The translations under genes and the position numbers were made by a program. Below are positions 14,004-44,766 of a stretch of DNA of 64,000 bases, one piece after another. Below the pieces are notes generated by a model. It saw only the letters and a program-made list of their open reading frames with translations. It had not been told where the DNA came from and did no database searches. Source of the DNA: an uncultured Thermoplasmata archaeon (lineage in GTDB: Archaea > Thermoplasmatota > Thermoplasmata > Lutacidiplasmatales > UBA184); the NCBI GenBank assembly GCA_963804525.1, contig CAWDQO010000003.1, forward strand, positions 16,687 through 80,686, in the 5' to 3' direction. How positions within the stretch are numbered: the first letter of the stretch is position 1; each line of letters begins with the position of its first letter.

Positions 14004-14576
14004 GTGGCGCGGTACCCTCCCGGCCCGAAGCTGACGGTCGACGCGTTCTGGGTGTCCCGGGGGCGCCTCCTCCTCGTCCTCCGCGCGCGGGAGCCGTTCC
14101 GAGGGACGTGGGCGCTCCCCGGCGGGTTCGTCGAGGCAGCGGAATCGGTCGAGGATGCCGTGGTCCGGGAACTCCGAGAGGAGACCGGACTTCGGGCCCG
14201 GACCGTCGGGCTCGTCGGGGTCTACTCCCAACCCGGCCGCGACCCGCGGGGACCGACGGCCAGCGTCGTATTCCGGATCGGCCGGGCGCACCGGAGCCCC
14301 GTCGGCGGGGACGACGCCGCCGAGGCGCGGTGGTGGCCGGTCGAGGAGATTCCGGAGCTCGCGTTCGACCACGCGACGATCGTGCGGGACGGCTTGGCCG
14401 TCGTTACGCCGAAGACGACCCGGCGACCGCCGGTTCGTACACGGAAAGCCGCGCGAGGTGGACCCCCGCGAGGACCGCCCACAGCAGGATCGGGGCGACG
14501 ACGAGCCGCTCCATTCCGCCCGGACCGAGGGCGAAGGAGTGACCCGACGCGAAGAGCCCGATGGCCACGAGAGTAA
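14004..14576 (+). CDS. NUDIX hydrolase
   Basis: The NUDIX box is GGFVEAAESVEDAVVRELREETGL. I chose the GTG start because upstream starts would overlap the divergent kinase gene. The C-terminal 57 codons are R/P-rich and overlap the convergent DUF998 gene. Confidence 0.75.
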   Translation: MARYPPGPKLTVDAFWVSRGRLLLVLRAREPFRGTWALPGGFVEAAESVEDAVVRELREETGLRARTVGLVGVYSQPGRDPRGPTASVVFRIGRAHRSPVGGDDAAEARWWPVEEIPELAFDHATIVRDGLAVVTPKTTRRPPVRTRKAARGGPPRGPPTAGSGRRRAAPFRPDRGRRSDPTRRARWPRE

Positions 14577-15060
14577 CGACCCCCGAGAGGAACGTGTAGG
14601 CCCGGAGCCCCTGCCAGCGGGTGTCCCGGGACATCGCGAGGGCGAGGAACAGGAGGGCGACCGCCGACCCCAGGAACGTGACGAGGGAGACGACCGAGTG
14701 GATCCCGGAGAACGGCCAGCTGGAACCCTCGGGGAACGTCCCGACCGCGATCGCCCCCAGCTCGGCGACGAGGAGGGCGCCGAGACCGACGTGGGTGGTC
14801 GTCTTGCTCGCGAAGGCGGTCCGGACCAACACGGTTCCGAGGATCCCGAGGAGCCCGAGAAGGCGGATCGAGTCGTTGAAGAGCCACGCCCAGGGGGACA
14901 TCGAGCTCCCCAGGTCGCTGATGTAGTTCCCGGTGTCGCTGTAGCCGGGATAGTACAGCTGGACCACGATCATCGCGGCGACGAACTGGACCGAGCCGGC
15001 CGCGAGGAGCAGTCCCCCCAGCCGGGCGGAGCGACGAACCAAGGGGCCGAACGTGGTCAC
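14404..15060 (-). CDS. DUF998-like polytopic membrane protein
   Basis: There are six to seven hydrophobic spans. YISDLG lies after TM1, as in DUF998 proteins. Confidence 0.7.
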   Translation of the reverse strand: MTTFGPLVRRSARLGGLLLAAGSVQFVAAMIVVQLYYPGYSDTGNYISDLGSSMSPWAWLFNDSIRLLGLLGILGTVLVRTAFASKTTTHVGLGALLVAELGAIAVGTFPEGSSWPFSGIHSVVSLVTFLGSAVALLFLALAMSRDTRWQGLRAYTFLSGVVTLVAIGLFASGHSFALGPGGMERLVVAPILLWAVLAGVHLARLSVYEPAVAGSSSA

Positions 15061-15087: not shown

Positions 15088-15231
15088 TCAGTCCCGTCGG
15101 GCGTTGCGTTCGTACGACGCGTCGCTCGTCCGCTTGAGGCGGGCGCCGTCGCGGTCGCAGATCGGCTTGTTCGTCGGCGAAACATCCATGACGTACCCCC
15201 CGCCGCACTTCGGACACTCGTAATAGGCCAT
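15088..15231 (-). CDS. 47-aa Cys-knuckle mini-protein (below the ORF-track size cutoff)
   Basis: My translation is MAYYECPKCGGGYVMDVSPTNKPICDRDGARLKRTSDASYERNARRD. GAGG lies 9 nt upstream of the ATG. The ORF sits 27 nt upstream of, and co-directional with, the DUF998 gene. Confidence 0.5.
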   Translation of the reverse strand: MAYYECPKCGGGYVMDVSPTNKPICDRDGARLKRTSDASYERNARRD

Positions 15232-15260: not shown

Positions 15261-15268
15261 TATATAAA
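15261..15268. promoter_or_regulatory. Shared TATA element (TATATAAA) between divergent genes
   Basis: The element is about 24 nt from GTG 15288 on the plus strand and about 33 nt from ATG 15231 on the minus strand. It is the only AT-rich element in the 56-nt spacer. Confidence 0.55.
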
Positions 15269-15287
15269 GCCCCTAGCTCGGCCGGTC

Positions 15288-16226
15288 GTGCCCTCGAGCT
15301 CGAAGCGGGTGGGTGGGCTCACCGTTCGTCGGGGCCCCCGAGCGGCAGCGCCCATTCCTCCCCCCGCACCTCCCGCGCGGTTTCGGCACCTCGACCGTTA
15401 CCGGGTCGATCGGGAGTGGAACCGGTACGAAGGAACGGCGCAACGGGAACTGTTCCGGACCCTGCGGGAGCGATTTCTCGCCCGGCACGCCGCGGACCAC
15501 GGGTGGGTGGTCGACATCGGGTCCGGGTCGGGGCGATTCACGCCGCGGCTCGGGGGCCCGGGCTGCCGAACGGTCGCGGTAGACCTCTCGGCCGAGATGC
15601 TCCGAGCCGTCCCGGACCATTGGCCCGCGGACCTCGACCGCCCCGAGCGAGTCCGCGCGGACGGCCGCAGGCCCCCGGGACGGTCCGGCTCCACGGCGGC
15701 CGTCGCGATCCTCGGGAATGCGGTGGGGTTCGCCGGGGCGGACGCTCTCGAACTGCTCGGCCAGTGCGCCGACCTCGTCGCTGTGGGCGGACGAATTCTC
15801 ATCGAGGCGGCCCCCGGCCCCGGAACGACGGCCCGATACCTCCATCGGCTCCCGCCGGGGGCCGTCCGCCGGCTGTTGCACGCGCCGCTCGGCGCCGTGG
15901 CGCCGCGGGTCCTCCGGGAGGGGTTCGTCACCCGGGAGTCGGAGGACCGGACCCGTCACGGGTTTCGACCGCTCTCCTTCCGCGCGATCTCTGCCCGCCT
16001 CGGGACGGTCGGGTTCGACGTCGCCGAGGCGACGGCGGTCGCCCCCGCGCTCGGCGCCGAACCGGACCGGCTGGAGGAGATCCGGGCCGACCCGGTCGCG
16101 TGGGGCCGACTCCTCGACCTCGAGGAGCGGCTCGGCGCATCGCCGCTGGTCCGGGACCGGGCGTCCGCCCTTCTGGTGGCCGCGGTCCGACCGGGCCCGG
16201 CCGCCGAAAAGCCAGCAATTAAGTAA
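15288..16226 (+). CDS. Class I SAM-dependent methyltransferase
   Basis: Motif I is VVDIGSGSGRF, the post-I acidic motif is AVDLS, and GGRILIE lies downstream. Confidence 0.8.
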   Translation: MPSSSKRVGGLTVRRGPRAAAPIPPPAPPARFRHLDRYRVDREWNRYEGTAQRELFRTLRERFLARHAADHGWVVDIGSGSGRFTPRLGGPGCRTVAVDLSAEMLRAVPDHWPADLDRPERVRADGRRPPGRSGSTAAVAILGNAVGFAGADALELLGQCADLVAVGGRILIEAAPGPGTTARYLHRLPPGAVRRLLHAPLGAVAPRVLREGFVTRESEDRTRHGFRPLSFRAISARLGTVGFDVAEATAVAPALGAEPDRLEEIRADPVAWGRLLDLEERLGASPLVRDRASALLVAAVRPGPAAEKPAIK

Positions 16227-16262
16227 CGGACGACGCCCTGTTTCTATCCACAGGGACGTCGC

Positions 16263-18902
16263 GTGGCGGACACAGCGAGTTCGACCCGCCGGGTAGTTGC
16301 GAGCCCCGTTCGGGCCGCGAATGCAAGCCCAGCCGCGCGGCCGTCCCGGTCGACGACGGTCCCGACCCCCCAGGACCTCGACCTCGTCAAGGACGACGCG
16401 CTCCTCCAGCTCCGGATCGGCCGCTCCGCCCACTACTACGCCGTGTTCGTCGCCATCGCGCTCCTCCTCGACGGATTCCTCGTCCTCTTCCTCCGCCCCA
16501 CGCTGATGGGCGTCGTCTCCTCGCGGTTCTGGAACCTTTCGTTCCTCCTCTTCCCGCTGTTCGCCGGTCTGTTCCTCGCGGTCTTCGGCCTCCGGGTGAA
16601 GTGGGAGGTCTACCAGCTCTGGCCGTGGGAACCCCACTTTTCGGTGACGGTGGCGGCCGTCGTCCTCGACCTCGCCCTCGTGGCGGTGTTCGTCATGGCG
16701 GTGGCGCAGGTCGGCCCCGGCGCGAACTGGAACCTCCTGCCGTGGTTCTTCCCCCTCGCGCTGCTGGGCATCTCGGCGCCGCTCTTCGGACTGATCTTCA
16801 CCTGGCCGTCGTGGTCGACGTGGAAGGTGATCTCGATCGGCTCGGCGGCGATCCCGGTCGGCCTCGCCTTCGCCACGTTCCTCCCGAGCGCCGACACGGC
16901 GAGCGGGATCGCGCTCACGCTCTCCTCGAGCGCGGTGCTGTTCCTCGTCGCCGGATCGTTCGTCCACATCATCTCGTCCGGGACCCGGACCCACGAGCGG
17001 GAGATCATCACCTCCGGACAGAGCCGGCTCTTCCAGATCGCCGACGAGCTCCGGGAGCGGGAGGAGGCCCACCACTTCCGGGAGAGCACCCTCCTCGAGC
17101 GGGAGGCGAACGTGGAGAACGCCGAACTGAGCCTCCAGCGAAAGCTCGACTCCCAGGAGGAGGCCCGCCGGCACATCTCCGCCCTCGAGGCCGACGTCCA
17201 GGCGCGGAGCCAGTCGGTCGTCCAGCAGCAGCGCGACCTCGCGATGAAGTCGGCGGAGACCAACGCGCTCAGCAAGACCCTCGAGGACCGGGCGACGAGC
17301 CTCTCCCTGAGGGAGGCCGACCTGGCGGCCCGCCTCCCGAAGCTCGCCGAGCGGGAACAGCAGATCTCCGCACGGGAGGGGGACGCCGCTCGCCATGATG
17401 CGGAGCTCGCCCAGCGGGAGGCCGAGACGAAGCGGCGCACCGATGCGCTCCCGGAGTCGGAGCGACTGCTCGAGGCGCGCCGCCAGGAGCTCGAGCTGAA
17501 GACCGGGGAGATCCTCCGCCAGGAGGGGGAGCTCCGGGGCCGGACCGCCGGGTTTGCGACGGACGACGCCAAGGCGTCCGACCTCGCCGCCCGGGAGGCC
17601 CAGCTCGCCCAGCTGAAGCTCGTCCTCGACGACCAGAACGCCTCGCTCGGCCGGAAAGCGAAGGAGGCCCGGGAGTCGCTCGCCCAGGCGCAGGCGCTCG
17701 CCCAGGAGAACGCGCGGCGCACGGAGGAGGTCGCGACTCGGGAAAGGAGCCTCACGGAGAAGGAGCGGGACGCCACGGAGAAGACCGAGCTCGCGGCGCA
17801 ACGGGCGGCCCAATACGAGGAGATTCTCCACACGTACGAGGAGCGGATCCGCGCCCTCGAGACTCGCGACGCCGAGCTCAAGAATCGCGGCGTCGACCTC
17901 AACCGGGTCAGCCAGACCCTGACCGAGCGCGACCGGACCGCGCGGACCGAGACCGAGCGGCTTCAGGCCCAGCGGGTCGAGCTCGAGCAGCGGGAGAAGG
18001 CGCTGCTCGTCCGCTCGAAGACCCTCGACGCTCGAGAGTCGGAGGTCAGCCTCAAGGGGCAGGCACTCGACCGTCGCGCCGTTCCGATGGCGGCGCCCAG
18101 GACGGGACCGGCGGCCGCCCCGGTCTTGGACGCCAACCTCCTCGCGCCCGCGAGCCGACCGAAGTTCGCGGACCGGATCCCGACCGGGACCCCGCGGCTC
18201 GACGATCTCTTGCTCGGGGGAGTCCCGCCCAAGGCCCACCTCGCGCTGATCGGGGACGCGTTCGTCGGCAAGGAGGTCGCGATCTACGCGTTCGTGGCGG
18301 AGGGGCTCCGGCGCGGCGAGCCGGTCGTCGTCGTCACCGCGTCCCGCTCCCCCGAGGAGCTCGGCCAGAAGATCGGCCTCGTCCTCCCGCAGCTGCACGA
18401 GTACGAGCAGCTCGGCAAGATCCACTGGGTCGACGCCTCGACCCCGACCGACGCCCCGACCGCTCAGCCGTCCACGTCGACCCGCTCGGTGACGCGGGGC
18501 CCGACCGACCACGCCGGGATCCTGAGCGCCCTCGTCCAGCGGTCGAACGCGATCACCACGGGCGGGGCGAAGTCGTTCCGGGTCGCGTACCTCGGCCTCT
18601 CGGCGTCGCTCTCCGCGGCCGACGAGCGGGTCCGGATGAACTTCCTCCAGAACCTCGTGGGCATCCTCAAGCCCCGCAACGCGGTCGCGATGTACTCCCT
18701 CGAATCCGGCTCGCTGCCGGAGAGCCAGGTCGAGACGATCCTCAGCCGGATGGACGGGGCGATCCGGTTCAAGCAGGAGCGGGACAAGACGTTCCTTTCC
18801 GTCCTCGGCCTCGGAGAAGTCGAGACCCACGACTGGGTCGAGTACCGGGCGACGCCGCGGGGCCTCGTGGTCGGCTCGTTCGCGCTCGAGCGGATTCGGT
18901 AA
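16263..18902 (+). CDS. Polytopic membrane domain, long coiled coil and C-terminal KaiC/RecA-like domain with degenerate Walker A
   Basis: Residues about 55-245 contain about six hydrophobic helices. Residues about 250-640 are heptad-like and E/R/A/L-rich. The C-terminus reads RIPTGTPRLDDLLLGGVPPKAHLALIGDAFVGKEV...VVVVT, like KaiC-type ATPases, but has GK-E in place of GK-[ST]. Confidence 0.85.
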   Translation: MADTASSTRRVVASPVRAANASPAARPSRSTTVPTPQDLDLVKDDALLQLRIGRSAHYYAVFVAIALLLDGFLVLFLRPTLMGVVSSRFWNLSFLLFPLFAGLFLAVFGLRVKWEVYQLWPWEPHFSVTVAAVVLDLALVAVFVMAVAQVGPGANWNLLPWFFPLALLGISAPLFGLIFTWPSWSTWKVISIGSAAIPVGLAFATFLPSADTASGIALTLSSSAVLFLVAGSFVHIISSGTRTHEREIITSGQSRLFQIADELREREEAHHFRESTLLEREANVENAELSLQRKLDSQEEARRHISALEADVQARSQSVVQQQRDLAMKSAETNALSKTLEDRATSLSLREADLAARLPKLAEREQQISAREGDAARHDAELAQREAETKRRTDALPESERLLEARRQELELKTGEILRQEGELRGRTAGFATDDAKASDLAAREAQLAQLKLVLDDQNASLGRKAKEARESLAQAQALAQENARRTEEVATRERSLTEKERDATEKTELAAQRAAQYEEILHTYEERIRALETRDAELKNRGVDLNRVSQTLTERDRTARTETERLQAQRVELEQREKALLVRSKTLDARESEVSLKGQALDRRAVPMAAPRTGPAAAPVLDANLLAPASRPKFADRIPTGTPRLDDLLLGGVPPKAHLALIGDAFVGKEVAIYAFVAEGLRRGEPVVVVTASRSPEELGQKIGLVLPQLHEYEQLGKIHWVDASTPTDAPTAQPSTSTRSVTRGPTDHAGILSALVQRSNAITTGGAKSFRVAYLGLSASLSAADERVRMNFLQNLVGILKPRNAVAMYSLESGSLPESQVETILSRMDGAIRFKQERDKTFLSVLGLGEVETHDWVEYRATPRGLVVGSFALERIR

Positions 18903-19021
18903 CCCGGGGACCCGCATCCCCCCCGGCGTAGGGTTCGAGGTCGACAGTTATTCCGAGAACGGGAATCGACGGCATTTCTCCGGTCAAGGTTTAAGAGCCC
19001 TGCCGTCGGGAGGAGCTTCTC

Positions 19022-21132
19022 GTGAGGCCCCGCGCCCGCCGAACGGCCCCCCGACCCGAACGCTTCCCTCTTCACCGGGTCGGGCGGGGCGTCTGGAGCG
19101 GGCTTGCCGTCGCAGCCGTTCTCGCGATGATCCTCGTTCTCCCTCTTCCGGCGTCCGCCCGTCTGGGTCCTCCGCCCGCAGCCGCAAAGGTCGTCCCCAC
19201 GACGAACGCCCTCGTCCGATCGATCGGGTTCCCTGCTCCCAGCGTCGTCCAGTACTTGCACGCGGTTTCCCCGGCCCACCCGCTCACCTGGCCGACGCCC
19301 GCGGGCCCGCGAGCCGCCGCATTGCCGAAGGCGACCGGGGTCAACGGAAGCTCCTGCGACCCGTACTGGCCGGCTTCCATGCCGATCGGGCTCGCGGCCA
19401 TCAACGGATCGGTCACCTGGACGGGAAACACGACGGGGGCGACCCCGCTCAATCTCTCCTGGTCGATCGTGATCGGCGGCGGAGGGATTCCGCCGTACCA
19501 GACGTACGTGGAAATCGAGCCGTACGTCGGCGGCAACTTGACGTGGAATTCCACGAACCTGACCGGGAACGTCTCCCTGACGGTCCCGGGAATGTACGTC
19601 GGCTTCGTGGAGGTCGTCGACTCGACCTGCGACGCCATCGGCGAGTCGTTGCTCGGGCCGGTCACGGTCTATGACCCGTCGGGCCTCGACCCGGTGCAGA
19701 TCTCCGCGTCGACCGCGGGCGGCACCGTCCCCCTCGCGGTCGCTTTTTCGCTGAACCTTTCGAGAGTACCGACGAACGCGAGCATGCTCTGGGAGACCCC
19801 CTTCTCGTACGATTCCGACGGATGGACGATCAACACGACGTACTACCAGCCCGGAAACGACACCGCGACGGGCTGCCTGGTCAACCCGACCACGGGGGCC
19901 TGGCTCGCCTGTGGGAATTCCAGCGCCGTGGCGGTGACCGGGTCGGACCTGACCACCGCGGTCTCGGTTGGGAACGGGACCCTTCCCGTGAACATCACCT
20001 TCTGGGTCAACGTCACGAACGGCTCCGCCCTCCCGGCGGGCTGGACCGTGAACCTGGATACCGACAACGGCACCCTCCTCGAGAACGCCTCGCAGAACGC
20101 CTCCACGAGCCTGACGGGGAGCTTTGGCTGCGGTCCCGAATTCCTCACCAATCCGGCGAACGCCGCCGGGATGTGCCCCTGGGTCGCGAGCTACTTCCTC
20201 GAGGCCGACCCGGGGGAACTCCGGTCTATGTGACCGGGGGAACCATCTGGGCGAACCTGACGGAAAACGGCTCGCCCGTCCTCTGGTACCCGACGGTGAC
20301 GTACACGGAGTCGCCGACGAACGGGTCCGCCCCCCTGAACGTCACCGTGAACGTGACCGCCTCGAACGGTCTCGCTCCGTACCAATACTGGTGGGCCGTC
20401 GTCGGCGCCTCGTCGGCGTTGCCGAACCAGACGTACTTCCCGACCGCCACCGGGAACGGTTCGGGATGGAACGGCTCCCTTCTTGCGCTGTCGTTCTCGT
20501 TCCCGCACCTCGGGATCTACAGGATCACCGTGACCGTCCGAGACTCGGACCTGAACTACGTCTTCCTGTATCCGCCGGTCGTCCCGGTCGGCGTCGCCCT
20601 TGCTCCCCGGCCCCTGCACGTCTCGACCTCCGAGGGAGCCGCCGCGGCGGCCGGCCCGAACGCCACCCGGGTCGCCTTCGTCGCGAACGTCCGCGGCGGG
20701 GAGGGCCCGTACGCGCTCCAGTGGACGTTCGGCGACGGGACCTACGGCAGTTCCCTCCCTGGGGTCCCGGTGACCCATACGTACGCGTCGGCGGGGACGT
20801 TCGTCCCCACCGTGACGGTGACGGATGAGACGGGGGCGACCCAGACGTCGACCCTCCCCGCCGTCGTGATTCTCCCGACACCCTCGACCGGGAACCAATC
20901 GTCTCCAGGCACGACCGGCCCGTCGCACGGGGCGTCCGGGAACGGCGGAGGACCCTCCGGGTGGCTCTCCCTCGGCACCGACGGATGGGTCGGCGGATTC
21001 CTCGTACTCGGGGCGCTCGCGCTCGTTGTCGTGGGGGCCGTCCAGGTCGAGCGGCAGAGGTCGGCCGAGCAGTTGGTGCGCCGGCTCGAGAGCGACACCG
21101 CTTCGGGGAAGCTGCCGCCGATGGGCGGCTGA
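19022..21132 (+). CDS. Sequon-rich surface glycoprotein with PKD-like domains and a C-terminal TM anchor; frame broken at the G-run 20212-20216
   Basis: The N-terminal signal/anchor is GLAVAAVLAMILVLPLPASA. PKD-type motifs are PYQYWW and PYALQWTFGDGTYG...THTY. The C-terminal TM is WVGGFLVLGALALVVVGAV. ORFs 19022..20233 and 19822..21132 join if one G is added. Confidence 0.8.
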
Positions 21133-21197
21133 GGCGGAACCCTCGCCGGCGCGTACCGAGATATCTTTCCGCGACCTCGGGGCGGTGGAACCGTCGG

Positions 21198-22460
21198 ATG
21201 CGCTTCCCGTCCCTGGCCGCGGTCGGCGTCCTCACCCTGGTGCCCGCGATGGGCGCGCTCTCTCCCGTGGTCGGGATCGGCCGTGCCTCGAACGACCGGC
21301 CCGGGACCGTCCCGCACGGCCTGACCCTGACCGCCACGCCCAGCACGGGCGTGGCCCCGCTCCCGGTCGACTTCGACCTCTCGATCCCCCCGAACACGAC
21401 CCTCCCGGAGGTCTCCTGGTCGTTCGGCGACGGCAGCTTCCTTAACGGGAGCGGGACCCCCGTTCTCGCTCCAGTCCACGACTACGAGGCGAGCGGGGTG
21501 TTCGTGGCGACGGCGTCGGCGACCTGGTCGAGCGGGACCGTGAACGCGACGATCCAGATCCAAGTGGCGGCGGCGAACCTCTCGGTCGGGATCCGCGCGA
21601 ACGTCACGAACGGCACCGCTCCGCTCACCGTGGCCTTCACGGGGAGCTCGGCCGGGGGGACCGGGACGTTCGTTTCGTTCGTCTGGGCGTTCGGGGACGG
21701 CGACGCCGGGACCGGCCGATCGATCCGGTACACGTTTACCGGCCCCGGGAATTTTCCGGTGACGCTCGTCGTGACGGACAGCCACGGCGACACCGGCAAG
21801 GCGACGGAATGGGTGAACGTCTCCGCCCGCCCGGATGGAAATTCGACCGGTCCCGGGTCCGGCGCCGCGGACCCCCCTACCTCTGGCCCGAACCCGTGGG
21901 ACCGCTTGCTGGTCGGTGGCTCGATCTGGCCCTTCCTGGGGGTCGTCGCGATCGCCGGCGCGGCGTTGGCCTTCGTGGGGTCCCGGTTCCTCAGCCGACG
22001 GGAAAGCGCTCGTCCGGAGGCCGCTCTCGCAACCAGCCGTTCCCCCATGGTCTCAGTCGGCCCGGGGTCACCTGACTCTCCGTCGCCAACGACCGGTCTG
22101 GAGCCACCCGCCGCACTCGCTTCTCCGCCCACGATTCCGGTCGGGTCGCGAAGGCTCCCCACGCGGGTCACCCAAGAGCGGCAGATTGCGAACCGGCTCA
22201 TCCGGCACCTGGCCGAGCTCCCCCGGATGGCGCCGGGCGACGTCCCGGGACAGGGTCGCACCCAGGCGGGCCTCGTGGTCGCCCTCGGGGCCGGTCAGAG
22301 CGCGGTCGGCCGGGTCCTGGGGCAGTTGGAGCGGGCGGGGGTCGTCACGGTCGTGACCACCCACGTCGTCGGCTCCCCGCGCCGAGTGAAAGTGTACCAG
22401 CTGACCCCCCGGGGGGAGCGGCTAGGACACGCGCTGCGCGAATCCGGCCCTCCGCCTTAG
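21198..22460 (+). CDS. Membrane-tethered regulator: signal peptide, two PKD-like domains, a TM helix and a cytoplasmic winged-helix domain
   Basis: The start is the ATG at codon 80 of ORF 20961..22460. PKD motifs are VSWSFGDGSF and FVWAFGDGDAG..RYTF. The TM helix is IWPFLGVVAIAGAALAFVG. The C-terminus RLIRHLAEL...RTQAGLVVALGAGQSAVGRVLGQLERAGVV...RRVKVYQLTPRGERLG is MarR/PadR-like wHTH. Confidence 0.8.
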   Translation: MRFPSLAAVGVLTLVPAMGALSPVVGIGRASNDRPGTVPHGLTLTATPSTGVAPLPVDFDLSIPPNTTLPEVSWSFGDGSFLNGSGTPVLAPVHDYEASGVFVATASATWSSGTVNATIQIQVAAANLSVGIRANVTNGTAPLTVAFTGSSAGGTGTFVSFVWAFGDGDAGTGRSIRYTFTGPGNFPVTLVVTDSHGDTGKATEWVNVSARPDGNSTGPGSGAADPPTSGPNPWDRLLVGGSIWPFLGVVAIAGAALAFVGSRFLSRRESARPEAALATSRSPMVSVGPGSPDSPSPTTGLEPPAALASPPTIPVGSRRLPTRVTQERQIANRLIRHLAELPRMAPGDVPGQGRTQAGLVVALGAGQSAVGRVLGQLERAGVVTVVTTHVVGSPRRVKVYQLTPRGERLGHALRESGPPP

Positions 22461-22984: not shown

Positions 22985-23920
22985 TCAGCCGTCGACGACC
23001 GGTTTCCGGTCCTTGATGAAATCGCCCCGGCGGAGCTCCCGCATCGCTTCCTGGAGCTCCTCCTGGCGGTTCATCACAATCGGGCCGTACCACGCGACCG
23101 GTTCCCGGAGCGGACGGCCGGAAACGAGCAGGAACCGGACCCCGTCGGCCCCCGCCTTCACCTCGACCGAGTCGCCGTCGCCGTAGACCGCGACGTGGCG
23201 AGCGGCGGTGGGCCGGTGCGACACCGGGTCGAACGCGCCGGACCCTTCCACGGGGTAGGCGAACGTCGTGTGCCCGGGAACCGTGGGGGCCCGGAACGTC
23301 TCGTTCGGCCGGACCGTGACGTCGAGGTACGTCGGGTCGACCGGGAGCTGATCGACGGGTCCGACCGCGTCCTGGAACGTGCCCGCGACGACCTTGACCG
23401 TCGAGCCCGCCTCGTCGTGAACGATGGGGAACGCTGACCCCCGGACCCCCCGGTATTCCGGAGTCGACATCTTCGACTTCGCCGGCATGTTGACCCACAG
23501 CTGGAATCCGTCGAGCATCCCCTCCATCCGGCGGGGCATCTCCTGGTGGAGAATTCCGCTCCCGGAGCTCATCCATTGGACGTCGCCGGAGTCAATGGTC
23601 CCCGCGTTGCCGAGCGTGTCGCCGTGGTCGACCTGGCCGCTCAGCATGTAGGTCACGGTCTCGATCCCGCGGTGGGGATGCCAGGGGAACCCCGCGACGT
23701 AGTCGGCCGGGTCGGACGATCGGAAGTGGTCGAGCAGCAGGAACGGGTCGAGTCGCGGGACCTCCGAATGGCCGAACAGGCGATGCAGGCGGACTCCGGC
23801 TCCCTCGAGCGCCTCCAGCCCCTCGAACTCCTGATCGACCACCCGGACCTTCGCGGACATCGGAACCCCGTCGATTTGACGTCCGCCGGCCTGATAAGCT
23901 CGCGATAGGCCGAAGGCCAC
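22985..23920 (-). CDS. Pirin family protein (bicupin)
   Basis: Motifs are GFPWHPHRGIETVTYMLSG and ...DVQWMSSGSGILHQE. An alternative ATG start lies at 23860. Confidence 0.88.
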   Translation of the reverse strand: MAFGLSRAYQAGGRQIDGVPMSAKVRVVDQEFEGLEALEGAGVRLHRLFGHSEVPRLDPFLLLDHFRSSDPADYVAGFPWHPHRGIETVTYMLSGQVDHGDTLGNAGTIDSGDVQWMSSGSGILHQEMPRRMEGMLDGFQLWVNMPAKSKMSTPEYRGVRGSAFPIVHDEAGSTVKVVAGTFQDAVGPVDQLPVDPTYLDVTVRPNETFRAPTVPGHTTFAYPVEGSGAFDPVSHRPTAARHVAVYGDGDSVEVKAGADGVRFLLVSGRPLREPVAWYGPIVMNRQEELQEAMRELRRGDFIKDRKPVVDG

Positions 23921-24000: not shown

Positions 24001-24129
24001 TAGATGCGGCCGACCTTTATCCCGCTCCCGACCGTCGGACGCCACATGGAGACCTCGGACGGACCGATCCGGAATGCCGAGGCGGTCTTCGTCTCCCCCG
24101 CGTCGAGCTCCGTTCGAGGGTCGCGGGGC

Positions 24130-27100
24130 ATGCAATTGAGCTCCAGTCCCGCGCCGGCCCCATCGGCCCGTCGAGTCTCCCCTCCGAATCGTTGCCAGGA
24201 TCGACGGGGCCAACGGGGGCCCCGCACGAGTCGGAAGCTCCTCGCCGCGGCGGGAATCCTCGCCCTCGCCGTACTCGCGAGTTCCTTCGCGGGAGTGGGT
24301 GGGACCGTCCGCGGGGACCCGCCCTCCGGCCCTTCCGCGATCTCGAGTCGCTCCCTCTCGACGCCTGCCGGGACCGCCAGCGAGCTTCGGGCGTTGGCGG
24401 CGACCGCGTGTCCCGGGGCGTACACCCCCCAAAACGTCACGATCGTCAACGGCACCACGAATCGGGTGACGGCGAGCATCCCCGTCGGCACGGAGCCAAG
24501 TGCCCTCGTGACGGACACGGCCACGGGGGACCTATTCGTGACGAACTGGGGCTCATCGAACGTGAGCGTGCTGAACGGGTCGACGAACGACCTCGTGGCG
24601 ACCATCCCCGTGGGAAGCTCCCCTCGCGGGATCGCCTACGATCGCGCGAACGGCGACCTCTACGTCGCGAATTACCTCGTGGCCCCGGCGGCCGTGACCG
24701 TCCTCAGCGGCTCGAACCTCACCCGAATCGCGACGATCTCGATCCCGCTCAGCAACCTGCCGAGCACGTTCGCGGTGGACACGGCGACCGACACCATCTA
24801 CGTCGGGAACGGGAACTCGAACTACGTCAACGTGATCAACGGGACGACGAACCAACTCGCGGGGAACATCGCCGTCCCCTCGGACCCGTACGCGATGGCG
24901 ATCGACCCGGCGACGGGGGAACTCTACGCCCTCGACGAGCAGTCGGCGAACGTGAGCGTCATCAACACGACGTCCAACGTCGTCGTCGCGAACATCTCCG
25001 TCGGGATGTACCCCGTGGCCCTCGCGTTCGGCCCGATGGACCAGGACGCCTACATCGTCGACGCCGGCATCGCCAGCGGAAACGTCAGCGTGATCGACGT
25101 GGCGAACGACTCGGTGGTCGCCACGATTCCCGCGGGGCTCTCCCCGAACGGGATCGCGTTCGATGCTTCGAACCGCGAGGTCTACGTCTCGAACCAGTCG
25201 GCGAGGGCCCCGTACGGGGGCAACGTCGCCATTGTCAACACCACGACCAATACGGTCGTCGCGAACGTCAGCGTGGGGGCCGAGGACCATTCCCCGGTCG
25301 CGGATGCGGCGAACGGAGACGTCTACGTCGCGGACTTCGGTCCGGGGGATGTGGACGTGATCAACGGCTCCACGAACCGGCTGCTCCCCCCGGTCGCGAG
25401 TTGGAACGGGTCCGACGGGGCGAGCGACGTGCTCGTGGATTCCTCCAACGGGAACATCTACGTCCTGAACCAGGCCTTCTGGAGCGGCGTCACGACCTAC
25501 GAGCTCAGCTTCTCCGAGACGGGTCTTCCGGCGGGGACGAACTGGACGGTCGGACTCACCGCCTCGTGGGGGTCGACGGGATTCCCCACCTACGAATCGT
25601 CGACGCTCGGCTGCATCTGGTTCGAGGGGTACAACGCCACGTACGCGTTCACGGCGCGCCTCACGTCTCCCGCCGTCAATTGGACCTACGTGGCCTCCCC
25701 CGCGTCCGGATCCTTCAACGTCAGCGGGGGCCCCGTGAACGAATCGATCGTGTTCACGTTCGAGCCGATCTACCCGGTCGAGTTCAACGAAACCGGGTTG
25801 CCGAACGGGAGTGCCTGGTCTCTGACGTTCGAGGGGTACCCGGAGTCGTCTTCCACCGACACGATCGCTGTGTGGGAACCGAACGGCTCCTACTGGTACA
25901 ACGGTGTCGAGGGGCCCTCGGAGTACGCGGCAGCTCCCAATTCGGGTCGGCTCCTGGTGAACGGGTCGGCGCGGAACATCCCGATCGCATTTTCCACAAA
26001 GACGTTCGACGTCAACTTCACCGAATTCGGGCTTCCCGTCGGCACGACGTGGTCGGTCGACCTCGGTGGTGACACTCAGTCCAGCGCGTCGCGGGGTATC
26101 CCGTTCGAGGAGCCGTCCGGGAATTACTCGTACACCGTCGGCGCGGTTCCGGGCTACATCGCGACTCCGACCGCCGGCACCGTGACGGTGGTCGGCTGGA
26201 ACCAGTCGATCCTTCTGAAGTTCGGACCGATCCTCTACCCGGCCAACTTCACGGTCTCGGGGCTGCCGAGCGGGACGTCCTGGACGGTCGACCTCAACGG
26301 GACCGAGCTTTCCTCGACCGGAACCGTCATCTCGTTCCAGGAGCCGGCCGGGATCTATCCGTACTCGATCCCCCAGCTCGCGGGGTACTACTCGGCGCTC
26401 CAAGGGACGGTCACCGTCGGTGCCCCCGGGGTCACGCAATCGGTGGTGTTCGCCCCGATCGTCTTTTCCCTGACGTTCCGGGAGGCCGGATTGCCGAACG
26501 GGACCGGTTGGGGGGTGGCGATCGGGTCCTCCATCGAAACGACGCTGGGGGCGACGGTCACCTTCCCGGACGAGACCAACGGGACGTACGGGTATGTCGT
26601 GCTCTCCATCTCCGGGTACACGACGACCTATTCCGGGATCGCCGTCGTGAACGGGACCGACCGAACGGTCGAGGTACTGTTCGTTCCTCAAACGTTCCCG
26701 GTCGTCATCGTCGAGTTCGGCCTCGCCAACGGCACGAACTGGAGCGTGACGATCACGAACGCCTCTGCCGGGTTCAACGAGACGCACTGGTCGACGACCG
26801 AGGCGATCGTCTTCGACCTCCCCAATGGGACCTACGCGGTCTCGGTCGCCCTGCCGACGGGGTACACGTTCGCGCTCACCGCCACCCAGCTCACCGTGGC
26901 GGGTCGGGCGACGTCCGGACCGACTCTGAACGCGCAGTCGACGGCTCCCCCATCCTCCCGGGGCGTCCCGCCGGAGGGCTCGGGAACCCGGCCTGCGGGG
27001 TCCCCGGATCTGCCCGGTCGAACTCCTGGGGCTCGCGTTGGCGATCGCTGCCGTCCTCGTGGGGGCTTGGGTCCTCCGTCGCAGGCCCCCCCGGCCGGCT

Positions 27101-27169
27101 CGACCGCCCTTGTCGTTCCCAGATGCACCGCCGAAGGTGGTCCCGGAGAAACCATCGTTTCGGAGGTAG
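24130..27169 (+). CDS. Giant surface protein: YVTN beta-propeller repeats, six GLPxGTxW modules and a C-terminal TM anchor; frame broken about 26940-27020
   Basis: The start is the ATG at codon 43 of ORF 24004..27576. There are about ten repeats of the type NxVSVINxxTNxVVATIxVGxxPxGIAxDxxNGxLYVAN. The TM anchor ELLGLALAIAAVLVGAWVLRRR and a TAG at 27167-27169 lie in the +1 frame. The track frame instead runs on as R/G-rich text across the next gene. Confidence 0.8.
25498..26930 (+). repeat. Six tandem modules of about 77-91 aa, each starting [YF]xxxFxExGLPxGTxWSV
   Basis: Module starts, read from the sequence, are at about 25498, 25771, 26005, 26235, 26464 and 26695, a period of about 230-273 nt. 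Each contains a later PNGTY/GNYSY...GY segment. Confidence 0.8.
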
Positions 27170-27255
27170 GAGGGACGCAACGCCCCGGGTCGGGCGGACG
27201 CGCAGGACGGTCCTCGGGGGCCGCCCGTCCAGGACAGCCCCCTCGGGCGGCCCGG

Positions 27256-27534
27256 TCAGGCGTCATCCGTGATGGCGCGGGGCCGGGGGATGACCTTCGG
27301 CTGGTCGGCATCGGTGGGCATTCCCGACTTCCCCTCGACGATGTCGCAGTCCTGCCAGTTCACGCCGACCGTGACCTTCGGGAAGGCGACCTTGATCGTG
27401 TAGGTGGCGAGCTTCCCGACGACCAGCCCGTTCGCCCCCTCGACGAGGTTCGGGTTCATGATGGAGAGGTCCCGGGTGAGGACGACGCGGGTCTTGCCGA
27501 AGACGATCCGCTGGAGCTCCTCCCGGTTCTTCAT
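27256..27534 (-). CDS. Hypothetical 92-aa protein
   Basis: The composition is protein-like (MKNREELQRIVFGKTRVVLTRDLSIMNPNLVEG...). An AT-rich TTTAAG element lies about 38 nt upstream. I recognise no family. Confidence 0.55.
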   Translation of the reverse strand: MKNREELQRIVFGKTRVVLTRDLSIMNPNLVEGANGLVVGKLATYTIKVAFPKVTVGVNWQDCDIVEGKSGMPTDADQPKVIPRPRAITDDA

Positions 27535-27649
27535 CGGGGGTCCCTGCGCGCGCGCGTAGCGGCCTCCCGTTCTTAAACTCGCGGCGTCGGGAGCGGCCGA
27601 GAAGGGTATTTAGAGGGAACCGCGGTGCCTCCGACGCGCCGGGGCCCGA

Positions 27650-33256: not shown

Positions 33257-36200
33257 ATGTTGAGGGTTCGACCCTCCACAGCCGTCGTTGTTTTCATCGT
33301 AGCGTTAGCCCTGCTCCTGCCGGGACTTCCCTCGGGGCGAGGCGGCCCGAGTGCGGGTATGCCGCGTGCAGCGGAGCCGACGCTCGGGGAGAGGGTCCTC
33401 CAGGCCGACGACGGCCAGGCGAGCTCCCCGGTCCGCCGGTGTGGGTCCGGCCGTTGCCCTACCGAGCGCCCGCGCCATCGTTTCGGCGCCGCCGCTCCCC
33501 TCTCCTGCCTGGGTCGACCGGACCGTCGAGATCTCCCACCTCTCGCTCTACCCCGGAATGCTCGCGTACGACCCGGCGATTTCCGCGACGGTGGAGTATG
33601 ACGGGTACTTCGGGACCACGTGGGCGTACACCGCGACCGGGTGGACGAACATCACGCCCGCGGTTTCCCCGCCGCCACGGATCTACGGGGGCCTCGCGTA
33701 CGATGCGGCATTCGCCGAACTTGTCCTGTTTGGAGGATACTCGATCCGCTCTGGCGCTCCCCTCAACGATACCTGGGTCTTCCACGGCGGAGCTTGGACG
33801 AACGAGACCTCCGCCGTCTCCCCCTCGCCGCGGTACTCTGTCGGGTTCGCGGCGGACCCGATGAACGCGGGGGTCCTGCTGTACGGTGGATTCCAGAACG
33901 TCACCCCCGACCCGGCATCGAACCAGACGTGGATCTGGAACGCCTCGGGGTGGCACGACCTACCGGGCCCGCCCGGTCTCCCGCCGATCTGGGGTGGGGC
34001 GATCGCCTACGATTCCGTCGACCAACAGGAGGTCGCCTTCGGGGGCTCGAACGTAGTCGGTGGCGTCGTCGTCCTCTCCAACCAGACATGGACGTACGCG
34101 AACGGGGCGTGGACCAACCGAACGACCGCGGGCCCCGGTCCTCGGACTGGGGCGTCGATGGCCGATTATCCCACCCTCGGGGGGGTGGCCCTCTTCGGAG
34201 GGACGAACGGCTCCGCGCTGGCGACGACGTACAACGACACCTGGGTGTTCCACAACAACGCATGGTCGCTGGTCCTCGGCGGCGTGGCGCCGGATTCCCG
34301 CGCTTTCGCGGGGTTCGCCTGGGACACCGCGACCGGCGACGCCGTCCTCGACGGGGGACTTGGCCCCCACGGCGTGGACGGCTCGGAGTTTCACCTGGAC
34401 ACATGGACGTTCCGCGCCGGCGCGTGGAGCGAGGTCCAAGGGAACTACACCCCGGACGACCGCGCTGGGGAAGGGTTCGCCCCGGTCGGGGGTGCCGGCG
34501 TGAGCGCAGTGCTGTTCGGGGGGATCAACGCGACGGGGGCGTACGGGAACGATTCGTGGTCGTTCACCCACGACACCTGGGTCGAGCACCTCGACCCGGC
34601 CGCGCCGCCGGCACGAACCGAATCGATGTTCGCCTCGGACCCGGCCGATGGCTACGACGTCCTGTTCGGCGGGTCAAACAGAACGGAGGTGTTCAACGAC
34701 ACCTGGTCGTACTCTTCGGGACAATGGACGGACCGATCCGGCCCCGCGGCCCCCCAACCCCGGCAAGGAGGTGTGTTCGTGTACGACCCGGTGATCGGAG
34801 AGGACCTCCTCTTCGGCGGCCGGAGCGCCTCGAACCGGACGCTGAACGACACGTGGACCTACCACGGCGGGACCTGGACGGAGATGTTCCCGACGGTGGT
34901 CCCCCCGGCCAGGGCCTTCGCCACCGCCGCCTACGATCATGCGCTGCAAGGCGTGGTCGTGTTCGGCGGGGCGTCGAGCGGGAGCACGCTGACACCCCGT
35001 CCCCTGAACGATACGTGGCTGTACACGAACGGCACGTGGACCCAACTCTCGACTCCCGTCGCGCCGAGCCCCCGATACGCTTCGACGATGGAATTCGACC
35101 CGCGACTCCAGTCGCTCGTGCTGTTTGGAGGTTGGACGTACCCGAACAGCCCGTACGCCGACAACGACACCTGGACCTACGGAGCGAACGGATGGCAGCG
35201 GTTCGGTGTCCACGGCGCCCTGCCGCCGGCAGGGTTTGCTGTCACGTGGTGGGACCCGACGACGAACGCGACGTGGATGTACGGGGGGGCGGCGCTGAAC
35301 CTCACGAGCTCCACGGCGAGCCTTTCGTCCGCCACGCTCGCCCTCGACCTCCTCGGATCCAACGTGACGCTCTCCGGGAGCGGAGGGTCGACCCCGTACC
35401 GGTGGAACTACTCCGCCTCCGCGCGGGACGGGGCTGCGCCGTACCAGGTACTCGTGGAGCCTTCCCGGCGCGACCGGATCGGGCGCAAGCGGCTCCTACA
35501 CGTTCGACACCCCGGGAACCTACGTGGTCCGGCTCAACCTGACCGACGCCTGGGGGGTGGTCTGGAATCGAACGTACGTCATCACGGTCGTTCCGGGCCC
35601 CCTGCTCGTCTCGTTCACCAGCACGCCGAGCTCCGGCTCCGCCCCGCTCCTCGTCACGTTCGCCGCCACGGCCCAGGGGGCGAGCCCTCCGTTCGCGTAC
35701 TCGTGGGACTTCGGGAACGGAGAGACCGCGCCACAGAGCCCGGACCCGAATGCCTCGACCACGTACGTCCACAACGGCACCTACACGGTCACCCTGAACG
35801 TCAGCTCCGGGAACGTCTCGGCGACGCACACGGAGTCCGTTCCGTTGATCTCGCTGGCCCCGTTCCAGATCCAGGCGTCGGTCAGCCCGAGCCACAGCAC
35901 CCCTCCCCTCAACATCTCGTTCTCGGCGAACCCGCTGAACGGGACGCCTCCGTTCGCGTACGACTGGACGTTCGAGGGAGGCGGCAACTCGTCGAAGGCG
36001 TCCGGGTATCACGTCTTCGACACCGCGGCGGTCCCCATTTCGGTCAACTACACGCTCTCGGTGAACGTGACCGACGGGAATGGGACCGTCGTCGGGGAGA
36101 CGTTCCGGGTCTACGTGCTCCCGTACATGTCCGTGCCAGGCTCCCCCTCGAACCGTTCGAGTCCCGCCCCGGGCATCCCCGATTGGGCCTGGGTGCTCGT

Positions 36201-36339
36201 GGGAATCGCGGTGCTGGGGGCCGTCGCCGCCGTCGTTCTCCTTCGCCGCCGGACTCCACCAGCAGGCGGGGAGGCTTCGGCCGGGGCGGCCACGTCGCCG
36301 ATGCCTTGGGATGAGGGCGACACCTCCGGTACGAGGTAG
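33257..36339 (+). CDS. Surface protein: signal peptide, about 11 Kelch-type propeller blades, three PKD domains and a TM anchor; frame broken twice
   Basis: The signal peptide (M)LRVRPSTAVVVFIVALALLLPGL lies in one frame (33257). The Kelch body, with repeated YDxxxxxxxLFGGxxxxxxxNDTWxYxxGxWT, lies in the frame of ORF 33351. After ...GAAPYQ the text continues in the +1 frame as YSWSLPG...YTFDTPGTYVVRLNLTD...FAYSWDFGNGE...FAYDWTFEGGG. The TM anchor is WAWVLVGIAVLGAVAAVVLL. Breaks lie between 33300 and 33430 and at 35447-35449. Confidence 0.8.
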
Positions 36340-44694: not shown

Positions 44695-44740
44695 ACTATT
44701 TAAATCGAAAGCGATATTTTGTACAAATTAACGATAAGTA
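44695..44740. promoter_or_regulatory. AT-rich divergent promoter region
   Basis: The sequence is TTTTGACTATTTAAATCGAAAGCGATATTTTGTACAAATTAACGATAAGT. TATA-like elements lie about 30 nt from ATG 44670 (minus strand) and about 30-40 nt from GTG 44767 (plus strand). Confidence 0.55.
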
Positions 44741-44766
44741 GTCGGGGGCCCCTACTAGGACCAGCC

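Follow-up and report, generated by a model that had tools for sequence, protein, structure and literature searches.

In the ToxR/ToxS system, as in TcpP/TcpH and PsaE/PsaF (Vibrio and Yersinia; PMC7496328, PMC6657601), a bitopic transcription factor joins an outside sensor through one transmembrane (TM) helix to a cytoplasmic winged helix, and a second bitopic partner is encoded beside the regulator. Surface-to-transcription signalling in archaea is poorly understood. The only well-studied membrane-bound transcription factors of archaea, ArnR and ArnR1, which regulate the archaellum of Sulfolobus acidocaldarius (PMC6396743), combine a helix-turn-helix (HTH) with a sensing part and have no extracellular domain. 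Here we analyse a 64-kb stretch (the window) of contig CAWDQO010000003.1 from an uncultured Thermoplasmata archaeon, in which four neighbouring genes, g1 to g4, encode a methyltransferase, a membrane protein with a KaiC-like domain, a PKD surface glycoprotein and a PKD-anchored winged-helix protein. A first-pass annotation, made from the letters of the sequence, had joined all four into one self-contained route from the cell surface to DNA. Our comparison of related genomes points instead, with a probability of about 0.6, to two independent two-gene modules, pair A (g1-g2) and pair B (g3-g4), which stand side by side only in one Lutacidiplasmatales sub-lineage, with pair B resembling ToxR/ToxS. 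The C-terminal domain of g2 shares its fold with PH0284, PH0186, ArlH/FlaH and cyanobacterial KaiC; g4, like ArnR, would be an archaeal membrane-anchored transcription factor, and its winged helix has helix 2, helix 3, the wing and the H-H-H-beta-beta-H topology in common with MarR/SlyA regulators.

Results

Conservation of gene order

The four genes lie on the plus strand with spacers of 36, 119 and 65 nucleotides (nt), as had been read at first; lengths are in amino acids (aa).

15288-16226, plus strand: g1, class I S-adenosylmethionine (SAM) methyltransferase, 312 aa; Pfam Methyltransf_25 and Methyltransf_11 above cutoff; pair A
16263-18902, plus strand: g2, membrane/coiled-coil/KaiC-like protein, 879 aa; from Pfam, a structure model and Foldseek; pair A
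19022-21132, plus strand: g3, bitopic sequon-rich PKD surface protein, ~702 aa; frameshifted here (19022-20233 and ~20215-21132); pair B
21198-22460, plus strand: g4, type I bitopic PKD/winged-helix protein, 420 aa; from Pfam PKD, AlphaFold 2 and profile searches; pair B
22985-23920, minus strand: Pirin gene, the boundary marker 3' of g4; directly after g2 in L010, L011 and L012

The comparison covered about 90 related archaeal loci in all (denoted by L and a number), among them 80 g2 loci fetched from the 194 g2 relatives present in GTDB species representatives, a family spread throughout the Thermoplasmata; the window proteins were searched by tblastn. The nearest relatives are Thermoplasmata metagenome-assembled genomes (MAGs), including Candidatus Lutacidiplasma silvani (L013), whose g2 is 85% identical to that of the window; G+C content is ~70% across the window and ~69% in the genus Lutacidiplasma (PMC9287336), which agrees with the first-pass guess of Thermoplasmatota. 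To score gene order around g2, we required an upstream flank of 900 nt or more for g1 (71 loci) and a downstream flank of 3 kb or more for g4 (60 loci).

Gene g1 lay upstream of g2 on the same strand in all 71 testable Thermoplasmata loci, adjacent in 69 and 1.6-2.4 kb off in two, whereas g4, together with g3, was found downstream of g2 in only 2 of the 60 testable species-representative loci. In L010, L011 and L012, where g2 is 76-82% identical to that of the window, Pirin directly abuts g2 and pair B is absent, which means that g3-g4 was either inserted between these two genes or deleted from there. The 13 g4 loci in turn fall in eight genomic contexts, of which the window's alone contains g1-g2 and the other seven do not, and the two pairs occupy different contigs of the MAG JAKIWD01: contig 14 (L009) carries pair B, and contig 21 (L025) carries pair A, whose 10-kb flanks hold neither g3 nor g4. 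The order expected of a single operon or system was thus not kept outside close, syntenic genomes, and the self-contained four-gene system of the first-pass annotation does not stand: the neighbourhood comparison that it had called for returns two separate pairs, adjacent in one small lineage only. As a reading of g3 and g4 the surface-to-DNA route remains reasonable; it does not extend to g1 and g2, and we found no link between the KaiC-like protein and the regulator that would make g2 its scaffold or switch, as had been suggested.

Pair A is a core gene pair of the Thermoplasmata; it was present at each of the loci that could be tested and is therefore probably of importance to the cell. Pair B is accessory, relocatable and fast-evolving: it is absent from L010-L012, has a broken g3 frame in the window and altered genes in L013, and encodes proteins that share 50-59% identity with their counterparts in L001, L002 and L004, where g2 reaches 73-77%; it may be decaying in this genome.

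The surface glycoprotein g3

In the window g3 is not one open frame. The open reading frame (ORF) at 19022-20233 is closed by a TGA, and the remainder of the gene lies in another frame, up to 21132.

20212-20216, plus strand: frame break in g3, a run of five G in which one more G restores the frame and matches the homologues

With six G at this position, g3 would give ...EADPGGTPVYVTGGTIWANL... / ...EADPGGTPVYVTGG..., in agreement with the homologues; L013 reads ...ATPGGSAEFVTEGTRWANL... at the position matching the G run. Intact homologues are single genes encoding 690-708 aa, and the two halves in the window align to residues 8-397 and 395-705 of single homologues 707-708 aa long. The reconstructed protein (~702 aa) comprises a hydrophobic segment at the N-terminus, a PKD domain (Pfam match in the C-terminal half, E 1e-12), a C-terminal TM anchor and a short conserved cytoplasmic tail. 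N-x-S/T sequons hold 30 of its 39 Asn residues where 6.8 would be expected, a count reached in 0 of 2000 shuffles. A sequon-rich PKD protein with a C-terminal anchor had thus been described correctly, and the frameshift had been missed.

In L013 the g3 homologue carries in-frame TAG codons at L013:10454 and L013:11240, where the window has Pro and Leu, and in the g4 homologue (L013:12372-13436) an in-frame deletion fuses the two PKD domains into one. These changes may represent pseudogenisation, assembly error or, less likely, amber read-through.

Such damage could mean that pair B is a non-functional remnant in this genome, the g3 frameshift being real and the module being lost as in sister genomes. 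The broken frame, the two TAG codons and the single-PKD g4 of L013, and the complete absence of the pair from L010, L011 and L012 all fit this view, as does the divergence of g3 and g4 (~50-59% identity), which is much faster than that of g2 (73-85%) and other neighbours. We nevertheless regard it as unlikely, although it is the most serious of the alternatives. A one-base change in the length of a homopolymer is a typical assembly or sequencing error, and a second surface-protein gene of the window (33351-36339) also has a one-base frame break, consistent with an error-prone consensus; moreover, both g3 halves and the whole of g4 are otherwise open, the upstream motifs are intact, and quick divergence is normal for surface proteins.

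The membrane-tethered winged-helix protein g4

The g4 protein consists of a signal peptide, two PKD domains (aa 43-124 and 128-209), a TM helix (243-267), a Pro/Ser-rich tether (268-320) and a winged helix (322-415). In an AlphaFold 2 model built on an alignment of 24 sequences, the predicted local distance difference test (pLDDT) was above 90 for both PKD sandwiches and 92-98 at the level of domains; the TM segment was modelled as one helix, and the tether, with pLDDT below 50, as disordered. The two PKD copies were identified by Pfam (PKD_4, E 7e-22) and superposed on the ColG PKD domain with a root-mean-square deviation of 1.3-1.5 Å, and a Foldseek search with the full model returned tandem Ig/PKD matches only. 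Sequons hold 8 of the 11 Asn residues of the ectodomain, and an RR or Arg-rich stretch directly follows the TM helix; from these sequons and basic residues an N-out, C-in topology is predicted.

The g4 ectodomain, stalk and TM helix align in the same order with the C-terminal half of g3, across two PKD-like domains and at 28% identity over 261 aa (E 5e-9); the resemblance of the two neighbours noted at first is therefore real. A further likeness, in which the g3 tail would mimic helix 1 of the g4 winged helix, was dropped as the match was insignificant (E 1.2).

Instead of binding DNA at the membrane, g4 might act through regulated proteolysis in the manner of Notch, SREBP or RsgI: a signal at the PKD ectodomain would induce cleavage in or near the TM helix and so free the winged helix into the cytoplasm, with g3 guarding or exposing the site. 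The type I orientation would suit such a mechanism, as would the tether (aa 268-320), which is long, Pro/Ser-rich, disordered (pLDDT <50) and poorly conserved, and the TM-linker-winged-helix design recurs across the family, including members without an ectodomain. Regulated proteolysis, modulated by the partner proteins, also acts on ToxR and TcpP, which counts in favour of this alternative. We consider it improbable all the same: no protease gene is linked to g4 in any of the 13 loci, and a tether of ~55 residues is long enough for a membrane-bound domain to reach DNA.

The C-terminal domain was modelled as a winged helix, as had been predicted, with helices at 322-340, 356-363 and 367-379, strands at 383-389 and 396-402, and a last helix at 404-415 (pLDDT 92-97).

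22161-22442, plus strand: winged-helix domain of g4 (H1-H2-H3-beta-wing-beta-H4), from AlphaFold 2 and profile searches

A profile of this domain matched MarR/SlyA structures at E 2e-5 to 4e-5 over helix 2, helix 3 and the wing; HTH_Crp_2, MarR_2 and PadR were matched in Pfam by all 19 g4 family members tested, and no match to OmpR or Trans_reg_C was obtained in Pfam. The helices of the MarR dimer are lacking in the AlphaFold 2 model, which has one helix on each side of the core and the disordered tether before it. Conservation is strongest in the recognition helix and the basic wing (GQSAVSRVL..., GSPRRVKVY), with R395 and Y400 invariant. The architecture proposed for g4, that is, two PKD domains, one TM helix and a winged helix on the predicted cytoplasmic side, is thus borne out, and because its outward PKD domains are joined by TM helix and tether to a cytoplasmic winged helix, g4 would be a membrane-tethered one-component transcription factor, presumably DNA-binding.

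It is quite doubtful that g4 is not a transcription factor and that its winged helix serves protein-protein contacts, for example by linking a partner in the cytoplasm to a glycoprotein complex at the surface. Winged-helix folds do sometimes serve protein binding, the window sequence falls below the Pfam cutoffs of every specific winged HTH (wHTH) family, and full MarR dimerisation helices are lacking; however, concentration of the most conserved residues in the recognition helix and basic wing is typical of DNA-binding winged helices, and the structures that the profile matches over helix 2, helix 3 and wing are those of DNA-binding MarR/SlyA proteins.

The wider family and its partners

Full-length homologues of g4 number ~30, in Thermoplasmata MAGs. 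When the winged helix was searched by phmmer against the full library, 535 cluster representatives were found at E <= 1e-3 and 154 at E <= 1e-10, and in nearly all of the 535 the winged helix stands at the extreme C-terminus. The family sequences sampled run from an N-terminal or internal TM helix through a Pro-rich linker to the winged helix, and their ectodomains vary from none (in proteins of ~200 aa) to one, two or four PKD domains or Kelch plus PKD. Databases label these proteins 'PKD domain-containing protein' or MarR/PadR/ArsR 'family regulator', and literature searches returned no description of PKD-TM-wHTH proteins. A metagenome scan with the close g4 alignment (A4) yielded three short contigs only.

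A co-directional gene for a PKD-containing bitopic protein lies immediately 5' of g4 in 13 of 13 loci. The partner proteins are 302-1010 aa long, have ectodomains of PKD only or of Kelch plus PKD, and share little in their distal ectodomains; the g3-like partners end in a TM helix and a ~20-residue tail, R-R-x-x-R-x-(E/G)-E-x-L-V-x-x-L ... RPP (11 partner proteins). A two-gene surface-to-DNA module formed by g3 and g4, from an uncharacterised family, is thus plausible.

Intergenic elements

AT-rich octamers are rare in this GC-rich genome, yet they occur at promoter distance before each of the four genes.

15261-15268, plus strand: TATA box TATATAAA before g1, in the divergent zinc-ribbon/g1 region; the same in L002 and L003, 26-31 nt 5' of the g1 start
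16217-16255, plus strand: g1-g2 junction with conserved TTAAGTAACGG, which spans the g1 stop; kept in the window, L001, L002, L004 and L013
18950-18995, plus strand: g3 promoter-like region with a palindrome, ATTTC at 18974-18978 and GGTTTAAG at 18988-18995 (alignment A5)
21157-21165, plus strand: conserved CGAGATATC, candidate promoter/operator, 32 nt 5' of the g4 ATG; invariant in five loci (A6)

The TATA-like GGTTTAAG, which occurs once in the window, lies 26 nt 5' of the g3 GTG at 19022; neither it nor ATTTC varies among six loci, one of which is L094, where the context is another and the upstream gene is not g2. An imperfect palindrome, ATTCCG-N4-CGGGAAT (18950-18966), stands 5' of this box and is a candidate operator, nothing more. 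The exact CGAGATATC likewise has a single occurrence in the window. With these conserved elements before g3 and g4, the earlier view that a TATA box precedes the first gene only has to be given up. Before g2, the AT-rich TTAAGTAA overlaps the g1 stop codon.

The 36-nt g1-g2 spacer also contains an inverted repeat, CCCTGT-N8-ACAGGG (16236-16255, plus strand), which is kept in close relatives alongside TTAAGTAACGG and might act as part of an internal promoter or fold into an RNA hairpin.

No terminator-like features were seen between the four genes. A bacterial-type scan of the window, a model that is uninformative for an archaeon, gave 0 promoters; it returned 3 terminator-like sites where 3.2 would be expected, and none lay between genes.

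The pair A proteins

The g2 protein begins with six TM helices (aa 56-238), followed by two long helices (243-424 and 439-596; ~180 and ~160 residues) that form a hairpin or coiled coil with a variable hinge between them, a disordered linker and a KaiC/RecA-like domain (aa 646-879).

18198-18899, plus strand: KaiC-like domain of g2, predicted catalytically inactive; from HMMER alignment to KaiC and PH0284 and from Foldseek

This domain has the RecA-type alpha/beta fold of the KaiC family. It matches KaiC (PF06745) at 44.8 bits (cutoff 26.6; E 1.3e-11), its PDB matches include KaiC and PH0284, and the g2 model aligned in Foldseek with PH0284 (2dr3) at a TM-score of 0.78 and superposed also on KaiC CI and FlaH; the KaiC_arch models of NCBIfam are matched as well, far under the family cutoff (40 versus 248 bits). 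The initial description of an 879-aa protein with about six TM helices, a long coiled coil and a KaiC/RecA-like domain is therefore accurate. A direct HMMER alignment to KaiC and PH0284 showed that the catalytic motifs have been lost. The Walker A pattern GxxxxGK[ST] is not present, GDAFVGKE standing opposite GTPGTGKT with the Thr lost; the catalytic Glu pair is gone (VTASRSPEE opposite VTFEESPDD, EE to SR), and so is the Walker B Asp, which is replaced by Leu (VAYLGLSA opposite IAIDSLSA). Because of these losses 'pseudo-KaiC', the label first given to g2, is a fair description, and the KaiC-fold domain most likely serves oligomerisation or docking, without hydrolysis, within a scaffold anchored in the membrane; the domain may still bind nucleotides. 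In all of 18 homologues the residue after the Walker A Lys is Glu (E671). The g2 family comprises 172 database proteins at E <= 0.001, almost all of the 120 listed being full-length.

For g1, the Methyltransf_25 match (32.2 bits, cutoff 27), the Methyltransf_11 match and motif I, VVDIGSGSG at aa 74-82, agree with its first assignment as a class I SAM methyltransferase; no specific subfamily or closer relative was found in NCBIfam or PDB. It could modify g2 or a ligand, a role that we infer only. Methylation of the g2 coiled coil in the manner of CheR was set aside as speculation, there being no CheR match in the Pfam scan. Literature searches returned no description of the g1-g2 pair.

The start of g1 is ambiguous between the GTG at 15288 and an in-frame GTG at 15309. 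As the TATA box ends just 19 nt 5' of the former and homologues align from about residue 17-31, the latter would fit a leaderless transcript better.

Other features of the window

Two genes divergent from g1 accompany pair A elsewhere.

14404-15060, minus strand: DUF998 membrane protein; Pfam DUF998, E 1.4e-22
15091-15231, minus strand: zinc-ribbon protein, 47 aa (MAYYECPKCGG...)

By tblastn, DUF998 is kept in 60 and the zinc ribbon in 67 of the 80 g2 loci, and the conserved neighbourhood may therefore be a set of four genes different from the set first proposed.

Opposite the conserved g1 and g2 runs an antisense ORF (15273-18917, 1214 aa) with an Arg/Pro/Gly-rich translation, which we took for an antisense ORF of the kind usual in genomes of ~70% G+C. 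Scans for Rfam families and tRNA found nothing.

A second large surface protein, encoded at 33351-36339 (plus strand), combines Kelch beta-propeller repeats with PKD-like domains and ends in a TM anchor. Its architecture is that of the g3-like partners in L007 and L096, and no winged-helix gene follows it; the Kelch and PKD parts lie in different frames, and the gene is split by an extra G near 35449-35451 (CAG-G-TAC). An 823-aa protein encoded at 44719-47190 (plus strand) has an N-terminal winged helix, which the g4 wHTH profile matches weakly (E 1e-8), together with an AAA_16 STAND-type NTPase domain and MalT-like tetratricopeptide repeats, and is probably a large signal-transducing regulator. 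The last ~100 codons (~27244-27544, plus strand) of ORF 24004-27576, which has NHL repeats in its N-terminal part, match a coding region 2-3 kb 3' of g2 in more than 50 loci and are probably a separate small conserved gene merged into this ORF.

Discussion

Our reading of pair B as a regulator with a dedicated partner suggests the following mechanism. The g3 protein would be the co-encoded bitopic partner of g4, with membrane-proximal PKD domains, stalk and TM helix colinear to those of g4 and a conserved cytoplasmic tail in addition, and the two may form a membrane complex like that of ToxR and ToxS, in the opposite topology. An extracellular cue at the PKD ectodomains would alter the activity or stability of g4, and its winged helix would then act on promoters, probably including the conserved upstream elements of pair B itself. 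In this scheme we infer the complex, the signal, DNA binding by g4 and the target genes alike.

Several observations weigh against two independent modules and a ToxR/ToxS-like pair B. The order of all four genes is kept in five related loci (the window, L001, L002, L003/L004 and L013), and a lineage-specific functional link is therefore possible; because there are no obvious terminators between the genes, read-through from the g1 promoter, and hence co-transcription in this lineage, is possible too. The frameshift in g3 of the window, the two TAG codons in g3 of L013 and the loss of one PKD domain from L013 g4 suggest that pair B may be inactive or decaying here. The winged helix of the window g4 lies under the Pfam cutoffs (MarR_2, 18.5 bits versus 27), and the candidate operator palindrome is kept in three close loci only (the window, L001 and L002). 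Finally, the PKD domains of g4 share 34-41% identity with unrelated PKD proteins but only 28% with g3, so the resemblance of g3 and g4 may be generic.

The four-gene loci are, however, syntenic far past the cluster, with GHMP kinase, DUF998 and zinc-ribbon genes upstream and Pirin and PurT downstream, and their shared order therefore reflects recent common ancestry. That all four genes form one operon-encoded signalling route, with the coiled-coil pseudo-KaiC as scaffold or switch of the PKD sensor-regulator pair, is accordingly very improbable, as co-directional genes, short spacers, unbroken junctions and the g1-g2-g3-g4 order of L001, L002, L003/L004 and L013 are outweighed by the absence of g3-g4 downstream of 58 of 60 g2 loci (including the 76-82% relatives with Pirin abutting g2), the seven other contexts, the separate contigs of JAKIWD01 and the conserved promoter-like elements before g3 and g4. 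For annotation, the lesson is that short spacers and a shared direction in a compact archaeal genome do not count as evidence for a shared system.

A broader proposal may tentatively be added to that of two modules, and we would give it somewhat less than an even chance. The 535 representatives would form a Thermoplasmata-centred class of type I tethered transcription factors, the examined ectodomain-bearing members of which are each paired with a dedicated, tail-marked bitopic glycoprotein, as an archaeal analogue of ToxR/ToxS or of Notch-type signalling that couples the glycosylated cell surface directly to promoters; separately, g1-g2 could be a membrane scaffold that is tuned by methylation and has an inactive KaiC ring as its base. 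If this is true, a large family of tethered winged-helix proteins, each with a dedicated partner and PKD sensors that carry glycans, would give uncultured soil Thermoplasmata a simple, testable route from surface to promoter.

Comparison with known systems

ToxR/ToxS is among the described systems closest in layout to pair B, in which the adjacency of the genes for regulator and putative partner is the conserved feature (13 of 13 loci). The two have no sequence homology. In ToxR the DNA-binding domain is N-terminal and OmpR-like, whereas that of g4 would be C-terminal, behind a signal peptide, and MarR-like; the ectodomains of pair B, unlike those of ToxR/ToxS, are PKD domains with predicted glycosylation, and the partner gene lies upstream and encodes a partial paralogue of the regulator's ectodomain. 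ArnR/ArnR1 is the nearest precedent in archaea; ArnR differs from g4 in its N-terminal HTH, its cytoplasmic HAMP and sensor domains and its two C-terminal TM segments; it has no extracellular domain, PKD or paired partner gene, belongs to a different phylum and has no detected homology to g4. Compared with MarR/SlyA regulators, g4 is membrane-tethered, has no MarR-type N- and C-terminal helical dimer domain and stays below the Pfam MarR cutoffs. In pair A, g2 departs from the single-domain KaiC-like proteins in that its Walker A Thr, catalytic Glu pair and Walker B Asp are replaced and in carrying, besides the KaiC-like domain, six TM helices and long helices of ~350 residues.

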